DNA from: a virus
Lineage: Duplodnaviria; Caudoviricetes
Virus record (IMG/VR): IMGVR_UViG_3300037461_000242
Coordinates: 1 to 33,531 of that record
DNA: 33,531 nt
Reading direction: 5' to 3' (one strand)
Part shown: positions 4,717 to 32,462 of the stretch, one piece after another
Position numbering within the stretch: position 1 is the first letter of the stretch
Layout of the letters: each line of letters begins with the position of its first letter
Made by a program: the position numbers and the translations under genes
The notes under the pieces: generated by a model
Seen by the model: the letters and a program-made list of their open reading frames with translations, nothing else
What the model was told of the DNA's origin: nothing
Databases searched by the model: none

Positions 4717-6294
4717 CTAGCGGTCGTCTACGTCTGCCGCTGCGCGGAAGCGGATGAAGCGGCAGAACCTGGTGGCTCCAGTGTCGCCGGGGTCCTGCTG
4801 CTCTTTGTAGTCGATCCACTGTCCGTGGTAGCGCTTCTTGTGGTCCCAGATCTCCTCCCGGAGGTCCTGGGTGAACCCGCCGACGTGGATCCAGTTCTTC
4901 TCTCCCTTGGGGACCACCTGGAGGGACCCCAGGCGAGCGGCGGTCCGGAACGAAACGGTCTGGCTGCTGGAGTGAACGATGCGCTGACGGAGGTAGAGCG
5001 GGAGCTTGGACCAGAACCTGTCGAAGACGACTACCCCGGGGGAGGGAACCTCGTAGCCTGTCTTGGTCGCCACGACCTTTCCCCACTTTGCCATGATGGT
5101 GAGCAGATCCGCGACGACGGACTCTTCCACCTGGTCATGCCCCTTGCGCCCCCGCTTGAATCCCGTGATGAGCCCCGAGCGGTCTCGGGTAGGCTTGATC
5201 TTGAGCCAGCTCCTGGAGCGCTTGCAGACGTAGGGGGCTTCAGGGTCCTTGATGATGGAACCTTCGTACCCCTGCTCCAGGTAGCTTTCGTAGCACTGTC
5301 GGATGTCCTCCATAGTACGCACCACAGTGCGCTTGACGAGCCCCAGGGGGCCTTCCTTCCCCTCCAGGGCCAGGACTAGCTTGAGCTTCGCCCGGCGCTT
5401 CCTGAGCGGGAGGGAGCACGCTCCCAGCGAATACTGTCGGAGGGGGACCGCATCGAAGAGGCGGTACTCTACGGACTCCTCTATGTCCTTCGCCATCTCC
5501 TCAGAGACCTTCTTCCGGGGCTTCGCCAGGCTCAAGGTCTTGCGCCAGTCGGTCTGCCCCGTACTCCGGTCGAAACAGACCATCTCCCCATCCAGGACGA
5601 TCCCCTTGGAGCCCAGCTCCTGCAAGGCGCGCTCGATGTGGGGAAGGTGTTCTACGGGCTTGCCCCCTCGGGTCCACATGGTGACATTGCCCCTCTCATC
5701 GATCAGGGTGGTCACGCGGAGCCCATCGAGCTTGGGCTCCGACCACAGGAGGAAGGGCTCCTCCAGGACGGTGGTTCCCTTCGTTCGTTTCCCCTTGGTC
5801 TTCTTTTCCCACTCCTCGGCGAGCATGCACTTGTTGTAGGGGGCGTCTCCCCGGAGCAGGTCGGGCCAGATCTTCGGGATGGTCAGCTTTCCCACCCCGA
5901 TGCCCAGGTCCCGGTCAAAGACACGAGTGAACCACTTGTGCTCCAGCCTGGGGCAGGAGTTGAGGAACCTACGCAACAGGAGGAACCCCTCTTTGCCTGT
6001 CGCCTTGCGGGCTGAGAGATCTCCGCAGACCTCCTGGAGCCTATGAAAACGCTTTTCCACACCCCCGCTGCTCAGGACCCTCTTCTTCATGGTCTCACAG
6101 GTCCTGTCTGGGTAGACGTTGTAGCGCTGGGACCCATAGGCTAGCTGGATGATGACCTGGAGGGCTGGGTTTTCAGCGTGTTGCGCGAGAGTCTGCTCCT
6201 TGACCGTGCGGCTGGAAGATGCCTCCACACTTTCCAGGACTTCGATGGCTTCCTGGATCGTCGTCTTGTCCATGCTCTGGCTCCAAAATGGCAT
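4717..6294 (-). CDS. lig: ATP-dependent DNA ligase (start 6294 or 6273)
   Basis: motif I EPKLDGLR, VLDGEM, YRLFDAV, YEGSIIK, WLKIK; N-terminal DNA-binding domain with DLGIGVG; C-terminal OB fold. Confidence 0.93.
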   Translation of the reverse strand: MPFWSQSMDKTTIQEAIEVLESVEASSSRTVKEQTLAQHAENPALQVIIQLAYGSQRYNVYPDRTCETMKKRVLSSGGVEKRFHRLQEVCGDLSARKATGKEGFLLLRRFLNSCPRLEHKWFTRVFDRDLGIGVGKLTIPKIWPDLLRGDAPYNKCMLAEEWEKKTKGKRTKGTTVLEEPFLLWSEPKLDGLRVTTLIDERGNVTMWTRGGKPVEHLPHIERALQELGSKGIVLDGEMVCFDRSTGQTDWRKTLSLAKPRKKVSEEMAKDIEESVEYRLFDAVPLRQYSLGACSLPLRKRRAKLKLVLALEGKEGPLGLVKRTVVRTMEDIRQCYESYLEQGYEGSIIKDPEAPYVCKRSRSWLKIKPTRDRSGLITGFKRGRKGHDQVEESVVADLLTIMAKWGKVVATKTGYEVPSPGVVVFDRFWSKLPLYLRQRIVHSSSQTVSFRTAARLGSLQVVPKGEKNWIHVGGFTQDLREEIWDHKKRYHGQWIDYKEQQDPGDTGATRFCRFIRFRAAADVDDR

Positions 6295-6348
6295 AAACTT
6301 CAGTTTAGGCTTGCCTAGCCTACAGAATTCGGTTAGCTTGGGACGTTG

Positions 6349-6378
6349 AATCTAGCACAGTGTCCATCACCTTGTCAA
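6349..6378 (-). promoter_or_regulatory. promoter motif copy 3 (degenerate, 18-nt spacer) upstream of ligase
   Basis: TTGACA-AGGTGATGGACACTGTGC-TAGATT. Confidence 0.6.
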
Positions 6379-6395
6379 ACAGAGGAGAGCGTCTT

Positions 6396-6653
6396 ATGTC
6401 CACAAACGGAAAAAAGAAGTCCACGTCCACCGAGGGAGCAAAGCCCATCAAGAAGGTGAAGAAGACCGAGGAAGAAATCCCCATGCTGGTGGTGACCTCG
6501 AAGGTCAAGGACCTGATCAAGGGAACGGGCCTTCGGTGCTCCAGCGACTTCCCCACCGCTCTCAACAAGAGGATCTGGCGCGAGATCAAGACCGCCATCA
6601 AGCGCTGCCAGGGCAACAACCGCCAGACCGTCCGCGAAGTAGACGCCCTGTAG
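6396..6653 (+). CDS. bacterial-type histone-fold protein (Bd0055-like) with Lys-rich N-terminal tail
   Basis: LVVTSKVKDLIK...SSDF..AL...AIKRC..NNRQTVREVD matches the bacterial histone pattern with RxTVxxxD; AGGAG SD before ATG 6396. Confidence 0.85.
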   Translation: MSTNGKKKSTSTEGAKPIKKVKKTEEEIPMLVVTSKVKDLIKGTGLRCSSDFPTALNKRIWREIKTAIKRCQGNNRQTVREVDAL

Positions 6654-6666
6654 ATTATTGTCGCCC

Positions 6667-6837
6667 ATGTCGCGCGCCCCTCGATTCTGCGTCCCCCAAT
6701 TCACCAACATCTGCAAGGGCTGCGGCAAGCCGTTTTCCGCCAAGCGGACGAATACGGAATACTGCTACACGGATGAGTGCCAAGCTCTAAAGATGAAGCA
6801 CTACCGCGAACGTCTGAAGCTCGCCAAGACCGCGTAA
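6667..6837 (+). CDS. 56-aa zinc-finger-like protein (not in ORF track)
   Basis: MSRAPRFCVPQFTNICKGCGKPFSAKRTNTEYCYTDECQALKMKHYRERLKLAKTA; CxxC...CxxxxC plus basic helix. Confidence 0.6.
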   Translation: MSRAPRFCVPQFTNICKGCGKPFSAKRTNTEYCYTDECQALKMKHYRERLKLAKTA

Positions 6838-8543: not shown

Positions 8544-9353
8544 CTAGATCTTGGGGTACTCGAACACCCATTCCCCAGCCTCGTTTTCCCTCATGTCGTA
8601 GAAGGCGTTGGGGTACTTCTCCTTCAGAAGTCTGGCGACCTGGTTGAAGACCATCCGGATCTCTTCCTCGGCGGTCTCAGCGGTCCGGAGGTTGATGGTG
8701 TGCCTCCAGGCGCGGAGGTTGCCCGTCGCCATGATAGTGGTCGCCAGCCCGATGGGGGCGAGCCTGCGGAACATGGAGGTGAGCTTCTTCTTCATGGTGA
8801 AGTTGGTCTGCTCGTCCACCCGGAACATGGCGTGGAGCTTCTTCTGGACCCCTGCCAAATAGTCCACGGTCTCCTCAAACAGCTCAGGAGCACCTGGGGT
8901 GTCCAGGACAAGCTTGGGCAGCCAGAAGCGGATCTGACCGCTCAGGCGCACGTAGCGGAGGCTCTCCTGGGAGTAGGCCCAGCCTGCCCGATGGCGGACC
9001 AGCTCGTGGGTGAAGACCCTGGACACGTCACGGAAGATGAAGGACACGGAAGCGTGCTCGAACAAGGCTCCGTGCTCCGACTTGATGACGTTCGCCAGGT
9101 AGGTTGGGTTCCCCTCCCTGACCTTGGTGACGTTCTCGTTCGTGGCCTCGGGCTTGTTCGGGTCCCATGGTGCCCAGGACCGATAGCACATCCTCCCGCC
9201 TGCCTCCAGGAGGGTCTCTGCATCGCTGACGCGGGGGTCAACGAACCAGTCGCTCTCCTCCAACCCTAGGTCCTTGATGTACTCCTGGAGTCCTCCTTCA
9301 TTCGATAGGGTCGTCGAAGCCACCAGGTATACCTTCGGCTCTACTCTCTTCAT
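8544..9353 (-). CDS. thyX: FAD-dependent thymidylate synthase ThyX
   Basis: GRMCYRS, HGALFEH, SRVFTHELVRHRAGWAYSQESLRY (RHRx7S), GNLRAW, EEEIR; GGAGGAG SD before ATG 9353. Confidence 0.96.
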   Translation of the reverse strand: MKRVEPKVYLVASTTLSNEGGLQEYIKDLGLEESDWFVDPRVSDAETLLEAGGRMCYRSWAPWDPNKPEATNENVTKVREGNPTYLANVIKSEHGALFEHASVSFIFRDVSRVFTHELVRHRAGWAYSQESLRYVRLSGQIRFWLPKLVLDTPGAPELFEETVDYLAGVQKKLHAMFRVDEQTNFTMKKKLTSMFRRLAPIGLATTIMATGNLRAWRHTINLRTAETAEEEIRMVFNQVARLLKEKYPNAFYDMRENEAGEWVFEYPKI

Positions 9354-9621: not shown

Positions 9622-10239
9622 ATGGCGATCTACTTCTATAAGAGAGACCGTGAGGAGTATGGGTGGTTGTCCAACTTCCACCGCGCTCCCTTCACCTTGG
9701 GGGGGATCTGCTACCAGTGCGTCGAGCATTGGTTTCAGAGCCAGAAGGCGATCACCCAGGACGAGCGGCTAGCCATCGCAGCGGCGGAGTCTCCCAAGGA
9801 GGCCAAGCAACTCGGGCGGGCCTGCAAGATGCGCAAGGACTGGGAGAACGTCAAAGAGCACGTGATGATGATCGGGCTCTCCGCCAAGTTTGAGCAGAAC
9901 CCAGAGCTGAAGCGCAAGCTCATGGAGACTGGGGAAGAAGCCCTGGTCGAGGACAGCCCCACCGACAACTTCTGGGGGAAGGGTCCAGACGGGGATGGAG
10001 ATAATCGTCTGGGCAAGCTCCTGGTGATGCTGCGATCCTACTACCGAGTCCAGTGTCATCTGGTCAACGTGTCCGTCTGGAAGGGGCTTGTACTCTGCAC
10101 CCCCTGGATCGCGGCGGGCAAACCTGTGGAGGAACCGTGTCAGACGCCAAGAAGTGGGACTACCCAAACTGCTACTTCTGCCACAAGATCATCGAGCCCG
10201 AGGAAGGGACGGCCATGGAAGGGCCGAAGGGGGAAGTAG
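9622..10239 (+). CDS. NADAR (YbiA-like) family protein
   Basis: YGWLSNF, VEHWFQSQK, AKQLGR, RKDWE, KFEQNPEL, LVEDSPTDNFWG, NRLGKLL. Confidence 0.92.
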   Translation: MAIYFYKRDREEYGWLSNFHRAPFTLGGICYQCVEHWFQSQKAITQDERLAIAAAESPKEAKQLGRACKMRKDWENVKEHVMMIGLSAKFEQNPELKRKLMETGEEALVEDSPTDNFWGKGPDGDGDNRLGKLLVMLRSYYRVQCHLVNVSVWKGLVLCTPWIAAGKPVEEPCQTPRSGTTQTATSATRSSSPRKGRPWKGRRGK

Positions 10240-10602: not shown

Positions 10603-12069
10603 CTAGACCTTGAAGAGGGCGGGCTTGACGAGGGCGTAGCGGGTGAGCTTGGCGCCCAGGCGACAGAGAGCGTCGTGGTACTCGGAGTCCAGGTGATCCA
10701 TGGACCCAATGTGAGAGTGCGCCAGCTCATGAATGAGAAGCCGATGGAACTCGTCGGTGTCCCCGCGCGCCACAGCCTCGAACCACTTGCGCCCGAGCCG
10801 ACCTAGGTTCCAGTGCAGTTCCCCGTTGGCACAGTAGCAGGCGCCGAAGTTGTTCCGGGTGTTGACGATCATCACCTCGGGCACGAAGCCATCCAGGAGC
10901 GCGGCAGCCAGGCGCTTCGTGTACTCCACCGTGATACGCTGGGCTTCCGTCCAGTCCTCCTCCGGGATGAACTCGGCGGGGTTGCCCGACTCGCTGTAGG
11001 GCTTGGGGCTCGGGGTCACCTGCCCCGCTGGCTTCGCGGCGGTGGTCCGCTTGACATTCTCCCACTCCCCCTTGCTCAGGCTCCCACCTTGGATGACGGT
11101 GTAGCCCTTGCTCACCGCCAGCTTGTTCGCCTCGGGGTCCGAGGGGTCGAAGACCACCCGCTTGGCGCCGAACCGGAGGTCGATGCCCCGGACCACCGCA
11201 GCGTCAGCCGCCCGCTTGTCCCCCAGGGCGTCGCGGACCCAGGTATCCGTAGCGTCCTCAGGCTCCAGGTCCTTGTACATCGCGTTGAGGACCGCGACCC
11301 GGACCGAGCGGAGGTAGCTCTCCGTGACCCCCGTGCGGTCCATGTTGAGTGGCACCTTCTGCCCGATGCTCACGTGCCACTTGTCCCCCGTCTCACAGAT
11401 CGGGATGCCCATCTCGTAGAGCATCGCGGGACCCTCTGCGCTGTAGACTTCCACCCGCGTCTTACGGATGGTCTTGGTGAGGTTTCCCTCCATGTCTACG
11501 CTGACGGTGGGAAGCGCCACCTCGAAGGTCTGGAGCGGGTGCCGTGGGGCCAGCTCCTTGCCGTTGAAGTAGGTCTTGATGTGTGGTGGGGGCAGGAGGT
11601 TGGCGCGGACTTCCTGGCAGACCTCAGCAACCTCATCCTTGGTCATGCGCAGGATACCCTCGAAGATAGACCCCTTCTCCGTCCGGTTACTGTAGTGCTT
11701 GCGCCCCTTCGGAGTGAAGACCACGTTCCCCTTGGTGGTCGAGATGCTGGCTTCCAGGCACAGAGCCAGGACCAGCTTCTCCCCGAAGTTGAAGCGCCCG
11801 CGCTGGGTGGGGTTGCCCTTCTTGGTGCTCTCCGCGAAGAGGGTGAAGGCGTGCGTCAGGTCGTGGAAGCCCTCGGGGGCGTCATCGCTCACGGTCAGGA
11901 CCGCGAGCCCTCGCTTGCCCACGACCAGCTCTGCGTCCACCCGCGTGACTCCGGGCTCATCCCAGGAGTTCTGGAGCAGCTCATAGAGCAAGAACGCCTT
12001 GCTCTTCTTCTCCAGGAGCTTCGCGAGCCCCTGGCGGTCCACATCGAACCAGTTGGCTGTCTTCGGCAT
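10603..12069 (-). CDS. GHKL-type ATPase fused to a C-terminal HExxH metallopeptidase-like domain
   Basis: ELLQNSWD, VSDDAPEGF, RGRFNFGEK, GSIF (Bergerat motifs); LLIHELAH...DH at the C-terminus. Confidence 0.8.
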   Translation of the reverse strand: MPKTANWFDVDRQGLAKLLEKKSKAFLLYELLQNSWDEPGVTRVDAELVVGKRGLAVLTVSDDAPEGFHDLTHAFTLFAESTKKGNPTQRGRFNFGEKLVLALCLEASISTTKGNVVFTPKGRKHYSNRTEKGSIFEGILRMTKDEVAEVCQEVRANLLPPPHIKTYFNGKELAPRHPLQTFEVALPTVSVDMEGNLTKTIRKTRVEVYSAEGPAMLYEMGIPICETGDKWHVSIGQKVPLNMDRTGVTESYLRSVRVAVLNAMYKDLEPEDATDTWVRDALGDKRAADAAVVRGIDLRFGAKRVVFDPSDPEANKLAVSKGYTVIQGGSLSKGEWENVKRTTAAKPAGQVTPSPKPYSESGNPAEFIPEEDWTEAQRITVEYTKRLAAALLDGFVPEVMIVNTRNNFGACYCANGELHWNLGRLGRKWFEAVARGDTDEFHRLLIHELAHSHIGSMDHLDSEYHDALCRLGAKLTRYALVKPALFKV

Positions 12070-15560: not shown

Positions 15561-15998
15561 ATGCCGCGTCGTCGCAATTCACCGAGCAACGCCGAAGCTG
15601 CGATCACGATCTACCGCAACCTGGAGGGCAAGCCCACCCAGGAGGATGACGAGAACTCTCTGAGCTACCACATCCTGGTGAGCGGGAACTACTCCCCGGG
15701 AAGGCCCCCGCCCCCGTGCTCGGATCACGACCACCCCAACTTCTCGGACCCCGGGGACGGACCCGAGTTCGACTACGGCAAGATCGAGATCGATGAAGTC
15801 GTGGACTGGGAGGGGGAGCCCGTTGTGGAGGGCCACGCGCTCTTTGGGCGGGTTCTGAAGCCGGAGCAGATAGAGCTGACCTCGGCTGAGGACGACAGCC
15901 TCTACGAGGCTCTGGGTTCGTCCTACGACCACGACGACGGACCCGACCCGGATGAGGCTTACGAACGCTGGCGGGACAGGCAGGACGATGATTGCTAG
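15561..15998 (+). CDS. acidic hypothetical phage protein
   Basis: AAGGAG SD; C-terminal DPDEAYERWRD. Confidence 0.7.
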   Translation: MPRRRNSPSNAEAAITIYRNLEGKPTQEDDENSLSYHILVSGNYSPGRPPPPCSDHDHPNFSDPGDGPEFDYGKIEIDEVVDWEGEPVVEGHALFGRVLKPEQIELTSAEDDSLYEALGSSYDHDDGPDPDEAYERWRDRQDDDC

Positions 15999-16293
15999 AG
16001 CCCTCCTTCTGACTCTGCTCTTGCTCCCCTCCCCGGGTGGGGCGAAGCCCTGTGTCCTCAAGGGCAAGCTCTTGTACGGGCGCGTGCAGGTGGTCAACTC
16101 CTTCCCTGACCTCAAGGTCCAGGTGGTCAAGTCGTTCCCACACCTGCGAGTCCAACAAGTGGCGAGCTTCCCTAACCGTTGCGGGAGGTGGCAGTTCGTC
16201 AAGTCGTTCCCTGACCTCAAGGTCCAGTTCGTCAAGTCGTTCCCTGACCTCAAGGTCCAGTTCGTGACCTCCTTCCCGGGCGTTCCCCACTGA
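15988..16293 (+). CDS. secreted repeat protein, DUF6150/7_1-knot-like
   Basis: hydrophobic signal peptide; 11-aa VxxVxSFPDLK repeats; CxxxGxxxxGxV and CGxW motifs. Confidence 0.65.
   Translation: MIARALLLTLLLLPSPGGAKPCVLKGKLLYGRVQVVNSFPDLKVQVVKSFPHLRVQQVASFPNRCGRWQFVKSFPDLKVQFVKSFPDLKVQFVTSFPGVPH
16192..16265 (+). repeat. 33-bp in-frame tandem duplication
   Basis: CAGTTCGTCAAGTCGTTCCCTGACCTCAAGGTC x2 plus a partial copy. Confidence 0.9.
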
Positions 16294-16338: not shown

Positions 16339-16824
16339 ATGAGAGACGTTTTCGTTTTCGTGAGACACGGGCACTACGACAAGGAGGGTGTGTCGGTGCC
16401 CGAGCGCGTGACCGCGCCGCTCACGAGCAAGGGCATGGATGCCGCGATTGAGGCTGGCGAGTGGCTGGCCCGCCGGGGCATCCAGCCTGACCTGGTGATG
16501 GCTACGCGCACCAGGAGGACCCAGGACACGGCGGAGCTGGTGGCTGAGGCCCTGGGCACCAAGACCACGGTGATGAGCGTGCCACGGGGCTTCCAGAGCG
16601 CGGAGGGCCTGGAGAAACTGCTAGACGAGTGGGCACCACCGATGCTGTACAAGAGCACGGGGCGGACGGTGGTGTTCGTGGGGCACCACACTCAGCAGGA
16701 TACGTGCCAGCGCGAGCTGGAGGGTGAGCCCGAGCTGCCGCGCAAGGCGCGGGGCAGCGTGCTGGTGTACGAGCGGCGTGGGGCAAAGTGGGTGTTGTCC
16801 GGATACCACGTAGGCTTAGAGTAG
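16339..16824 (+). CDS. histidine phosphatase superfamily protein (SixA-like)
   Basis: FVRHG, PLT..G, RTQDTA, VFVGH; about 160 aa. Confidence 0.8.
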   Translation: MRDVFVFVRHGHYDKEGVSVPERVTAPLTSKGMDAAIEAGEWLARRGIQPDLVMATRTRRTQDTAELVAEALGTKTTVMSVPRGFQSAEGLEKLLDEWAPPMLYKSTGRTVVFVGHHTQQDTCQRELEGEPELPRKARGSVLVYERRGAKWVLSGYHVGLE

Positions 16825-17540: not shown

Positions 17541-18143
17541 ATGTTCGTCGTTTTGGAAGGTATCGATGGAGCTGGCACGACCACAGGCGCCAAACTCGTA
17601 GCAGAAGCCCTGGCGAAAGAAGGGATCCCCGTCGTCTTCACCTTCGAGCCTTCAGACGGACCCATAGGCAGCCTGGCGCGCAAGGCCCTCCAACACAAGA
17701 TCGAGATCGACTTCCGGGGGATGCTGGGGCTCTTCGTAGCCGACCGATGGTGGCACATTGACAACGTGCTCAAGCCCGCCCTCGACCGAGGGCAGATCGT
17801 CATCTGTGACCGCTACCACTTCTCTACCTGGGTCTATCAACAAGACGTTTTCTCCCAAGCCATCATCGAGGAGCTACAGAAGGACCTTCTGGTTCCCGAC
17901 CTGGTGTATCTCCTCGACGTGCCCGCCGAGATCGCCCACAAACGCAAGAAGGGTGGGGAAGAGAAGTACGACGCCTTGGAGCGACAGAAGGTCTACCGGC
18001 AGCGCTACCTCACCGCCTCCCTGATGAACGGGGGCTATCGGCTGGGGAAAGAAGAGGTCTTCTGTCTGGACTCAGAGTTCATGTCTGCCTCTTACAACTC
18101 GGAGAGGATCATCCGCGATATAAAGGAGCGAAGGAAATCATGA
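17541..18143 (+). CDS. tmk: thymidylate kinase
   Basis: EGIDGAGTTT P-loop, TFEP, LFVADR..H, ICDRY.FS..VYQ, PDL...LD. Confidence 0.92.
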   Translation: MFVVLEGIDGAGTTTGAKLVAEALAKEGIPVVFTFEPSDGPIGSLARKALQHKIEIDFRGMLGLFVADRWWHIDNVLKPALDRGQIVICDRYHFSTWVYQQDVFSQAIIEELQKDLLVPDLVYLLDVPAEIAHKRKKGGEEKYDALERQKVYRQRYLTASLMNGGYRLGKEEVFCLDSEFMSASYNSERIIRDIKERRKS

Positions 18144-18853
18144 TGAACGGGACTCGACTTCCGATGGTGACCGTTGTGGGCCTTATAGGCTCTGGGAAGT
18201 CCACTCTAACTGAAGAGCTGGGCGTTGCCCTGGGGCCAAACACTCTGATCCTTCGGGAGCCTGTCATCGAGAACGGAGGGAACCCCTACCTCGCCGATTA
18301 CTACGCGGAGCCCAAGCGGTGGTCCCTGACGATGCAGGTTCACCTCCTCGCCCTTCGGTTTCGGATGCACAAGCATGCTCAATGGCACAGCCTCCAGGGT
18401 CACGGGGCCAGTGTCATCGACGGCAGCTACTACATGGACACCGCGTTCGCTCGTCTCCAGCTCAAGCTAGGACTCATGGAGCCGCGCGAGTTTGACACCT
18501 ACTCCGCCATCTATCATGCGATGACTGCTTCGGTCCTCTACCCCACAGCGTGTGTCCGGGTGCTTGTAGACCCCACGACTTGCAATCGGAGGATCTCCCG
18601 ACGGATGGAGCGTATCGAAGGTCGAAAGTGCGAGAGTGCTATCGACCTCAACTACCTCCAAAACCTCGATGGTGAGATCGAGCACATGGTGTCCGTCCTC
18701 AAGCACAACGGGGTCACTCACTTCGACATGCCCTGGGATCTGGACAGGGACAACCCCGAAGCCCGCCAGCAAGCCGTTCAAGGACTCGCCGCTCGCATCC
18801 TCGCTACTCGCCCGCCAGACCCCTTCCTGGACCTGCACCGACGCACCATGTAG
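18140..18853 (+). CDS. deoxynucleoside kinase family protein
   Basis: GLIGSGKST, LREPV, NPYLADYY.EPKRW, RISRR...E...YLQNL. Confidence 0.85.
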   Translation: MMNGTRLPMVTVVGLIGSGKSTLTEELGVALGPNTLILREPVIENGGNPYLADYYAEPKRWSLTMQVHLLALRFRMHKHAQWHSLQGHGASVIDGSYYMDTAFARLQLKLGLMEPREFDTYSAIYHAMTASVLYPTACVRVLVDPTTCNRRISRRMERIEGRKCESAIDLNYLQNLDGEIEHMVSVLKHNGVTHFDMPWDLDRDNPEARQQAVQGLAARILATRPPDPFLDLHRRTM

Positions 18854-18871: not shown

Positions 18872-19951
18872 ATGGTCAAGCTCATTCATTGCGGCACCTT
18901 TCTCGTATCCGGCGCCGAGCCCGGGAAGATCAAAGTCCAGCGTAAGGACACCGGGCGGTGGGTCACCATCAACAAGGAGACCCTGAAAGAGAAGCCGGAC
19001 GAGTACGCCAAGCCCAAGAAGAGTGAGCAAGGACTCAGCAAGAAAGAGAAGAAATCCAAACGCAAGGAGAAGGTCCAGAAGGAAGTCTCCAAGCGTGAGA
19101 AGGTGACGAAGCTCCAGCAGAAGAAGGACACCAAGGACAAGCAGCGCGAGCTGAAGCAGAAGTTCAAGACGGACGAGCAGAAGAAAGAGGACAAGCCCCC
19201 TGAGACTTCTGATTCGGCTGAGACCATCCGTTGGTATCTGGAACACGAGGGGTTGAGCGAGAAAGCCAAGCCTGAGAAGGTGAACAAGGTCAAGGAGACT
19301 CTCAAGAAAGTCCTCGACAAGAGCAAGCCGCCGGAGAAGGGTGGGAAGTGCAAGCCGAAGACGAAGCTCGTTCGCGTTCTCGACCCAGAGACTGGCAAGC
19401 ACAAGATCAAGTGCGTGCCCGACAAGGCCAAGGCTCCCGGTATCACCGACCTCAAGGGTCCGAAGCCCAAGAAGGGCCTGGAGCGCATCGACCCCAAGGT
19501 CCAAGAGAAGGAACAGAAGGATAAGCAGAAGGCGGAGGAGGCCAAGAAGCGGCAGAAGGCTCTGGAGTTCGCCAAGAAACAGAAGGCGAAGGACGAGGCC
19601 CTGAAGAAGACGCCCCCTCCCCCTCCTCCGAAGAAGAAAAAGAAGGCAGGCTCTTTCGTTGGGGGAGAAGGTCCCAAGCCCAAGGCTCCTGAGCCCCCCG
19701 AGTTCGACCCTGAGCTGACTTCCCGGGAGCGCCTCGAAAAGAAGGAGGAGGAACGGGAGAAGGAAAGGGAGAAAGAGCGGGAAGAGGCAAAGAAGCAACT
19801 CCTGAAGGACCAGGAGAAGCGGGAGAACCCTCCGAAGGTGAAGCCCAGCGAGGTCCCCAAGCCTCCGAAGGCGCCGAAGATCCCGGACATCCGGAAGATC
19901 CGTCCGGTGCGAGTCAAACCGATCAAGCCGCCGAAGCCACCACGAATATGA
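18872..19951 (+). CDS. very Lys/Glu/Pro-rich low-complexity protein
   Basis: 359 aa dominated by AAG/GAG codons. Confidence 0.8.
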   Translation: MVKLIHCGTFLVSGAEPGKIKVQRKDTGRWVTINKETLKEKPDEYAKPKKSEQGLSKKEKKSKRKEKVQKEVSKREKVTKLQQKKDTKDKQRELKQKFKTDEQKKEDKPPETSDSAETIRWYLEHEGLSEKAKPEKVNKVKETLKKVLDKSKPPEKGGKCKPKTKLVRVLDPETGKHKIKCVPDKAKAPGITDLKGPKPKKGLERIDPKVQEKEQKDKQKAEEAKKRQKALEFAKKQKAKDEALKKTPPPPPPKKKKKAGSFVGGEGPKPKAPEPPEFDPELTSRERLEKKEEEREKEREKEREEAKKQLLKDQEKRENPPKVKPSEVPKPPKAPKIPDIRKIRPVRVKPIKPPKPPRI

Positions 19952-31679: not shown

Positions 31680-32462
31680 ATGTCACAGCCAGTTCGTACT
31701 CGTCCAGGCGCACTGACCCAGCACAAGATCGACCGCACCCGGTCGGCCTGGGACAAGCTCATCGAGGTTCCGCTGAAGTCCACCAACGCCTACACGCAAG
31801 AGGGCGACTGCATCGTCCTTGGCAGCGAGGCGGGGACAGACTACGCGGTCTATGACCGCAGCGCTGGCGTCGCGAACGAGAAGTTCGCGGGCGTCGCGAT
31901 CAGCGACTACCGCAGGATCACCGACTTCGTGAAGTGCGAGACCACCGTGGTCCCCACGGTCGCTGCCTTCACCTTCCAGCTCGCCAAGACCACCCCGGTG
32001 GCTGGCAGCTTCTTCCTTCAGGATGCCGCTGGGACCGTCATGACCGACGTGTCCCCGGGCGCCCCCGCCAGCGTCAACCAGTACAGCGTGTCCGCTTCGG
32101 GACTCGTGACGTTCCATGCCGCCAAGGCAGGCGTCACCATCAGCCTGATCCGGTACACCTACATCCCGACGGTCCGCGAGATGAACGCGATCTTCTATCA
32201 GCGTCCCCTCGTGGCCCAGGGCCAGAGCCTGCTCCAGCAGGTCGCCATCGCGGTCGGGCACGTCCAGATGTTCACGACGGGCTACGTCTCGGCCAACACC
32301 TTCACCGTGGGCTGCCGGGTCTACACGGGAGCAAGTGGCAAGTTCACGACGACCACGACTGCGGTGCAGGTCGCGGGTGTGGTGATCAGCCTCCCGACCG
32401 TCTCCGACGTGTACCTGGGCGTCGCCTATGACTCCATCGTCCCGGGCGTTCTGACCTGGTAG
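31680..32462 (+). CDS. virion structural protein, head-decoration-like
   Basis: beta-rich Thr/Val/Gly composition, EKFAGVA, VYTGASGKFTT, G.VI.LPT...YLGV; upstream of capsid. Confidence 0.65.
   Translation: MSQPVRTRPGALTQHKIDRTRSAWDKLIEVPLKSTNAYTQEGDCIVLGSEAGTDYAVYDRSAGVANEKFAGVAISDYRRITDFVKCETTVVPTVAAFTFQLAKTTPVAGSFFLQDAAGTVMTDVSPGAPASVNQYSVSASGLVTFHAAKAGVTISLIRYTYIPTVREMNAIFYQRPLVAQGQSLLQQVAIAVGHVQMFTTGYVSANTFTVGCRVYTGASGKFTTTTTAVQVAGVVISLPTVSDVYLGVAYDSIVPGVLTW

Follow-up and report, generated by a model that had tools for sequence, protein, structure and literature searches.

A tailed face-to-face histone encoded by an uncultured tailed phage and preceded by a putative late promoter element

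Results

The histone gene and its translation start

The window (the whole stretch of phage DNA analysed, 33,531 nucleotides) contains at 6396-6653 (+) an 85-aa histone-fold open reading frame (ORF) ending in TAG. The features at and around the gene are as follows, HLp being the histone of Leptospira perolatii.

4717..6273 (-), ATP-dependent DNA ligase gene, divergent neighbour of the histone gene
6329..6339 (+), imperfect copy of the GRSTTAG element, TCGGTTAGCTT, with one mismatch, 63 nt before the histone start
6349..6378 (-), sigma70-type promoter TTGACA-18-TAGATT with extended -10, facing the ligase gene and lying within the histone 5′ leader
6381..6389 (+), Shine-Dalgarno (SD) site AGAGGAGAG, 6 nt 5′ of the ATG at 6396, from SD pairing
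6396..6653 (+), gene for a tailed face-to-face (alpha3) histone, 85 aa, from sequence match and from fold and tetramer prediction
6396..6482 (+), N-terminal tail, 29 aa: residues 1-23 basic (net +7) and followed by an acidic linker, EEEIP
6483..6650 (+), histone core, from the predicted structure: alpha1 34-43, alpha2 52-73, truncated alpha3 81-84; DNA-binding residues by match to HLp, S35, K36, K38, K42 and T78; tetramer residues R70, G73, N74 and R76; R76-D83 clamp
6667..6837 (+), Cys-rich 56-aa ORF with no family at E≤0.01

The gene is genuine and intact. Searching 1.84 billion proteins returned 176 relatives at E≤0.001, so the ORF is not a chance reading, and its codon pattern is gene-like (GC3 0.86, compared with 0.64-0.96 across the remaining in-frame genes examined). 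Another study (run X2) yielded a second strain, represented by a 971-bp contig comprising the start of the ligase gene, the histone gene and the next gene; its histone ORF is intact, with one substitution, A15E in the tail, and one synonymous difference. The two main holders of the sequence are wetland and sediment metagenomes, the best of which may be where the window comes from, and there is no RNA data set among the listed holders. The protein has a mass of 9.5 kDa, a pI of 10.1 and a net charge of +11. No terminator-like site lies between the gene and the Cys-rich ORF downstream, and the two are possibly co-transcribed.

The ATG at 6396 has the best SD pairing (-9.1 kcal/mol; AGAGGAG, spacing 6), compared with -5.9 for the internal ATG at 6483. 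An in-frame GTG at 6360 was rejected as the start because of its weak SD (-4.3 kcal/mol) and its position inside the divergent promoter. The internal Met, residue 30, is absent from all six closest relatives, which carry Q (P0002-P0005), T (P0021) or V (P0022) at this position and are all tailed. Together with the SD at 6396, this indicates that the tail belongs to the conserved product. By these sequence signals the 29-aa tail is part of the histone and is translated from 6396, as the initial annotation had proposed. That the gene yields mainly a tail-less protein from 6483 would fit the weak SD there and the presence of Met in this column in 31 of 126 aligned relatives; given the six tailed relatives that lack it, we regard this as very improbable. 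A tail-less form may be a minor product in the window's strain.

The core is of the face-to-face type

The protein matched no histone family in Pfam, PHROGs or NCBIfam. A structure model built on 126 sequences has the three helices of a histone fold, and its first Foldseek match is HLp (9QT0; TM 0.90 over the target, rmsd 0.9 Å, 42% identity). Chains of HBb, the Bdellovibrio bacteriovorus histone also called Bd0055, follow at ranks 4-7 (rmsd 1.0 Å), and HMfB at rank 46 (rmsd 2.7 Å). By sequence, too, HLp is the best match among solved structures (9QT0, E 1.7e-7), ahead of HTkC of Thermococcus kodakarensis (9F2C, 2.4e-3) and Bd0055 (0.03). The predicted fold, the relatives and the phage head genes in the same record all bear out the original reading of the ORF as a phage-encoded, bacterial-type histone.

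Face-to-face (FtF) alpha3 histones (Schwab 2024; Hu 2025) are characterised by residues R48 and N52, the motif RxTxxxxD and assembly into a toroidal tetramer; bacterial dimers of the Bd0055 kind lack R48/N52 (PMC11390915). Both tetramer residues of the FtF profile are present here, as R70 and N74. The motif reads R76-Q77-T78...D83, with no K/R after the R, and the four-residue alpha3 fits the FtF criterion of an alpha3 cut to 3-4 residues. The full motif recurs in 126 of 146 single-domain relatives. HLp residues R49/N53/R55/T57/D62 correspond to R70/N74/R76/T78/D83, and the exposed alpha1 lysines K36, K38 and K42 to HLp K15, K17 and K21; five of the nine HLp DNA-contact residues are identical, all three lysines included.

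Four-copy prediction gave a score of 0.90 in three of three runs, against 0.00 for the best of three controls, with at least 77% of contacts in common between runs and partner pLDDT of at least 77. Of 30 solved pairs, 20 attain the score mark, as does 1 of 23 single chains. The calibration of the tool does not extend to four copies, and resemblance to the solved HLp and HTkC structures may explain the pass. The predicted dimer-dimer contacts (66, 69-70, 73-74, 76, 82-83 and 85) coincide with the FtF interface formed by the end of alpha2, L2 and alpha3. These contacts, the match to HLp and the five residues R70/N74/R76/T78/D83 identify the protein, almost certainly, as an FtF histone of the HLp/HTkC type rather than the Bd0055 type, with a ring-shaped homotetramer as the predicted assembly.

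This result displaces Bd0055, cited in the initial annotation with sequence ends that do agree with the PDB chain, as the model for the protein. HBb/Bd0055 (PDB 8CMP, 8FVX, 9EZZ) shares the alpha3 histone fold and a very similar alpha1 start, and its high Foldseek ranks could be taken to favour a dimer that bends or coats DNA. It is, however, a dimer without the R48/N52 tetramer residues and a weak overall match, whereas in the phage protein R70 and N74 are present and used in the predicted tetramer, and Q77 replaces the K of RKT. A Bd0055-like dimer is thus very improbable, and multimer prediction upheld an assembly but of the tetrameric, not the dimeric, type. The pertinent model is accordingly DNA wrapping round a ring, not coating or bending in the manner of Bd0055.

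Three other class assignments were considered and rejected. The bacterial dimer class (HBb/Bd0055; BBVHFP) is contradicted by R70 and N74, by RQT and by the confident predicted tetramer. The viral tail-to-tail "phage histones" of Schwab 2024 are defined by a C-terminal helical tetramerisation domain and absence of RxTxxxD, whereas the protein stops two residues past D83 and has the motif. A nucleosomal, HMf-type histone would have a full alpha3 helix of about 10 residues instead of four.

Comparison with HLp and HTkC

HLp (PDB 9QT0-9QT2; PMC12701072) shares with the phage histone the alpha3-truncated fold, the tetramer residues, the RD clamp and the DNA-binding lysines. It is reported to wrap about 60 bp, with MNase protection of 35-72 bp, and to decondense the nucleoid and elongate the cells when expressed in E. 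coli (PMC12701072). Wrapping of DNA as in HLp is likely, by analogy. The two proteins differ in that HLp is chromosomal, 63 aa long and short-tailed, whereas the phage-borne protein has a 29-aa tail and one more C-terminal residue. In alpha2, K58, R59, R62 and K65 stand where HLp has E, K, A and D, and HLp T27/G29/T56 are replaced by C48/S50/Q77.

HTkC (PDB 9F2C) has the same fold (rmsd 1.0 Å) and the tetramer arginine, but is archaeal, 59 aa long, without a long tail and 32% identical to the phage histone. It compacts DNA strongly; its tetramer needs the arginine equivalent to R70, and in it a conserved arginine forms a salt bridge with the C-terminal carboxylate of the opposite dimer (bioRxiv 10.64898/2025.12.06.692711). 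In the phage protein the C-terminus lies at D+2, as in 11 of 126 aligned sequences, instead of the usual D+1 (111 of 126), and L85 falls inside the predicted interface; the extra residue shifts the carboxylate bound by the conserved arginine in HTkC.

Tail, clade-specific changes and phylogeny

The tail (8 K, 3 S, 4 T and 4 E; net +4 over its 29 aa) is predicted to be disordered, with pLDDT below 50 at residues 6-24; the core from Met30 has 56 aa and a net charge of +7. Relatives numbered 168, namely the best 150 of the 176 plus further matches, and 146 of them have a single histone domain; two domains are found in 22 of the 168, P0023-P0045 among them. Tails of at least 10 aa occur on 96 of the 146 single-domain proteins and of at least 29 aa on 34, and 56 of the 71 tails of 15 aa or more have a net positive charge. 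Basic tails are also described as common on bacterial FtF histones (Schwab et al., PMC11390915). Of the Lys/Ser/Thr richness initially ascribed to the tail, the lysine part is thus a family trait, whereas the Ser/Thr part is confined, among the five closest proteins, to P0001 and P0002 (S+T fraction 0.24, against 0.07-0.08 in P0003-P0005). As this richness is not conserved, a conserved Ser/Thr phospho-code is unsupported and was rejected. P0005, from the same clade, has a 94-aa tail with a net charge of +23.

Alpha2 carries a net charge of +5 in the clade of the phage histone, against a median of 0 in relatives; this value is attained by 5 of 126 aligned relatives, four of which are P0001-P0004. 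Two further differences lie at or near the tetramer interface: an extra C-terminal residue relative to 111 of the 126, and E63, at an interface-adjacent position held by L, M or V in most cellular relatives.

In a tree of 205 rows and 58 columns, from which P0119 and pieces shorter than 45 aa were excluded, 10 of 200 inner branches are strongly supported. P0001-P0005 and P0022 group together (SH-aLRT 91), apart from the histones of Nannocystaceae; the phylogeny upheld the grouping but not a joining to that family. FtF-type histones are present in named Nannocystis, Enhygromyxa, Plesiocystis and Paraliomyxa strains (L016, L029, L036, L037, L044, L079), several of these genomes having two copies. 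The nearest Atlas clusters are mostly from Myxococcota and Planctomycetota, and neither these clusters, nor the named Ro60 neighbours (see below), nor the tree identified a histone-bearing host. On the lineage initially suggested for the host, Myxococcota/Bdellovibrionota, these data speak neither for nor against. A tblastn search of 50,697 GenBank phages returned nothing at E≤1, though distant copies could escape it. Searches of viral, metagenome and genome contigs did not confirm a locus for any histone relative, and scans with the ligase and the promoter repeat revealed none.

The phage and its gene neighbourhood

The virus record is rated 11% complete, which implies a full genome of about 300 kb. 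It contains the tailed-phage genes for terminase, portal, head protease and major head protein, and its terminase is about 30% identical to TerL of PaBG and related jumbo phages. The source is probably a fragment of an uncultured, giant, PaBG-related tailed phage. Four related uncultured stretches (L001, L002, L083 and L085) have the same head-gene order and terminases 68-71% identical; inserts of about 1.1 kb, possibly inteins or introns, split the terminase gene of L001 (9385-10466) and the head protease gene of L002 (15154-16304). The histone was not seen in the parts of these stretches examined, head-gene blocks included; as all four are fragments, this says nothing on its absence from those phages. 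Contiguity of the histone and head genes in the window rests on the assembly and on promoter repeats that recur along the window.

Genes for Ro60, ThyX and NADAR lie near the histone gene. The full-length Ro60/TROVE protein (672-2300, +) has two closest relatives 65-67% identical, and the named Ro60 neighbours are mixed Myxococcota and Chloroflexota. P0004, the nearest histone relative on a long contig, and the closest Ro60 relative each derive from one 27,440-bp JGI contig entry, which suggests that a related phage retains both genes. Besides ThyX and NADAR, the nucleotide and repair functions include a histidine phosphatase and, in tandem, thymidylate kinase and deoxynucleoside kinase.

8544-9353 (-), 9622-10239 (+), 16339-16824 and 17541-18853 (+), nucleotide and repair genes

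Three further proteins of the window were recorded. A very Lys/Pro-rich protein of 359 aa (18872-19951, +), preceded by a GRSTTAG element and without a Pfam or PHROG family, is a candidate second DNA-condensing protein; just a short N-terminal piece is kept in related phages. A 488-aa protein (10603-12069, -) gave a weak match to a sacsin-type ATP-binding domain (E 0.002, below the cut-off) and looks GHKL-like by eye. A 101-aa ORF (15988-16293, +), without a Pfam family, has a signal-peptide-like start and about five VKSFPDLKVQ-like repeats.

Two kinds of promoter-like elements

Nine near-identical sigma70-type promoters (nine of 11 search matches) occupy the left half of the window. Their consensus is TTGACR, 16-18 nt with a conserved spacer, TGC and TACWGT; some form divergent pairs, and all nine are likely early promoters. 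The window search found none on the histone's own strand beside the gene.

306, 4621, 6354, 13002 (-) and 6902, 13100, 13695, 14688, 16327 (+), -10 boxes of sigma70-type promoters
16814, 17153, 18855, 20261, 25427, 29024, 30038 (+), GRSTTAG elements

The second element, GRSTTAG, lies 13-78 nt before head-region genes and is kept in orthologous gaps of the window, L001, L002 and L083; it is also found before non-structural genes. A variant, CTAGTCTTA, precedes capsid-associated genes at 31680 and 32970. A matrix was made from 19 sites of three related phages, chosen by eye after the motif had been noticed in the window, with five starts corrected by hand. Its seven best matches in the window sit 13-73 nt ahead of starts, and the site upstream of the histone ranks 10th of 67,040 window positions. 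Eight of the 11 sites scoring at least as high as the histone's lie 10-80 nt before a start on the same strand (background 6.1%), and none of the nine genes with a sigma70-type promoter is preceded by the element. At -3 every one of the 19 training sites has a G, which is missing from the histone's copy. In a shuffle test the window had 8 sites against 3.2 expected (P 0.014), the differences in L001 (4 vs 2.1, P 0.17) and L002 (4 vs 2.0, P 0.14) not being significant. In PaBG and RHEph12 the terminase region shows no enrichment of the element: the plus strand has 0 and 1 matches, respectively, and no start is preceded by one. Nothing relevant to the element emerged from a literature search.

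We interpret GRSTTAG as a putative, clade-specific late promoter element. The one-mismatch copy before the histone gene hints at late expression, as does the finding of no sigma70-type promoter for the gene on its own strand. PaBG encodes a sigma factor of its own, as group 2 jumbo phages generally do (PMC7824862), which makes it plausible that a phage sigma factor reads GRSTTAG.

An element that precedes both head-region genes and the histone gene would suit an internal head protein, made late, neutralising and organising the genome of about 300 kb inside the prohead, and ejected with the DNA to shield it from host nucleases. The protein is suitably small and basic, and some large eukaryotic DNA viruses are reported to use histones for genome packaging (bioRxiv 2024.12.06.627149). 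Its gene, however, sits with early and replication genes, at least 17 kb away from the block for terminase, portal, protease and capsid, and the head-gene blocks of the four related stretches contain no histone. Rigidly wrapped DNA would, moreover, be difficult to pack and eject through the portal. We consider this role unlikely.

Discussion

Tailed FtF histones of phages are a published class. Liu et al. 2024/2025 described viral FtF histones (VFFHFP) from Caudoviricetes, their Lys-rich tails being 5-40 aa long (bioRxiv 2024.12.06.627149; PMC13681535), and the present protein resembles them in being Caudoviricetes-encoded, FtF-like and predicted to be tetrameric, with a Lys-rich N-terminal tail within that range (29 aa, 8 Lys). 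Supplement file 3 of that article uses the VFFHFP label 106 times, at least once with gene coordinates 6396-6653; the entry is very likely the same gene, an identification made from the coordinates as the rows hold no sequence. The novelty first attached to a tailed viral histone was therefore overstated, the more so as such tails are widespread among relatives. In the accessible parts of Liu et al. the class consists of predictions only, and the promoters, timing and basic alpha2 of the clade do not appear. No viral FtF histone tested at the bench came up in a literature search, and a term search of the accessible text of a 2026 jumbo-phage review (PMC13282480) returned no occurrence of the word histone. 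What is new here is the GRSTTAG element in the clade with its one-mismatch copy before the histone gene, and the unusually basic alpha2.

With a probability of about one in two, we propose that the protein is a late phage nucleoid protein, a tailed FtF histone whose ring tetramer wraps about 60 bp of the new phage genome. To judge from the promoter elements, the histone would be made late in infection. The homotetramer, by analogy with wrapping and compaction in HLp and HTkC, would wrap DNA without sequence preference, its target presumably being newly replicated phage DNA. The disordered basic tails and the basic alpha2 may add electrostatic affinity or bridge neighbouring particles. During packaging of tailed phages the terminase threads the DNA through the portal; the histone would be stripped off at this step.

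A histone that binds non-specifically cannot alone prefer phage over host DNA. The same tetramer might act on the host, coating or decondensing its nucleoid, or mixing with and disabling a host FtF histone, and so stopping host transcription. Such a takeover agrees with the likely non-specific binding, with the effects of HLp on the E. coli nucleoid and cell length (PMC12701072), with the essentiality of FtF histones in Leptospira (PMC11390915), and with the differences of the clade near the interface (E63, the extra C-terminal residue, alpha2 +5 against a median of 0). Several findings argue against it. Every DNA-binding and tetramer residue is kept, unlike in a dominant-negative decoy; no histone-bearing host was identified, the clade standing apart from Nannocystaceae histones. 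Phage takeover factors are usually early, whereas the histone gene has no sigma70-type promoter on its strand. On balance this reading is rather unlikely, and we retain the late nucleoid protein as the preferred one.

A bolder version of the latter, which we hold to be quite doubtful, is that this jumbo-phage clade builds late, phage-sigma-driven chromatin from the tailed histone, shielding the genome from nucleases and possibly carried in the capsid, with the extra-basic alpha2 face and the tails stacking the wrapped particles. If true, phage chromatin would be a histone-based alternative to the protein nucleus of phiKZ.

As the class, and very likely the gene too, had already been catalogued computationally, the discovery value of the locus is low. 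The remaining question is what phage histones do, and to this the clade adds clade-specific surface changes and a hint on timing, provided by the putative late element and the divergent early promoter in the histone leader. Strains of Nannocystis, Enhygromyxa, Plesiocystis and Paraliomyxa are possible laboratory models besides Leptospira, and the protein, being small and easily expressed, is a reasonable first candidate for testing phage chromatin.
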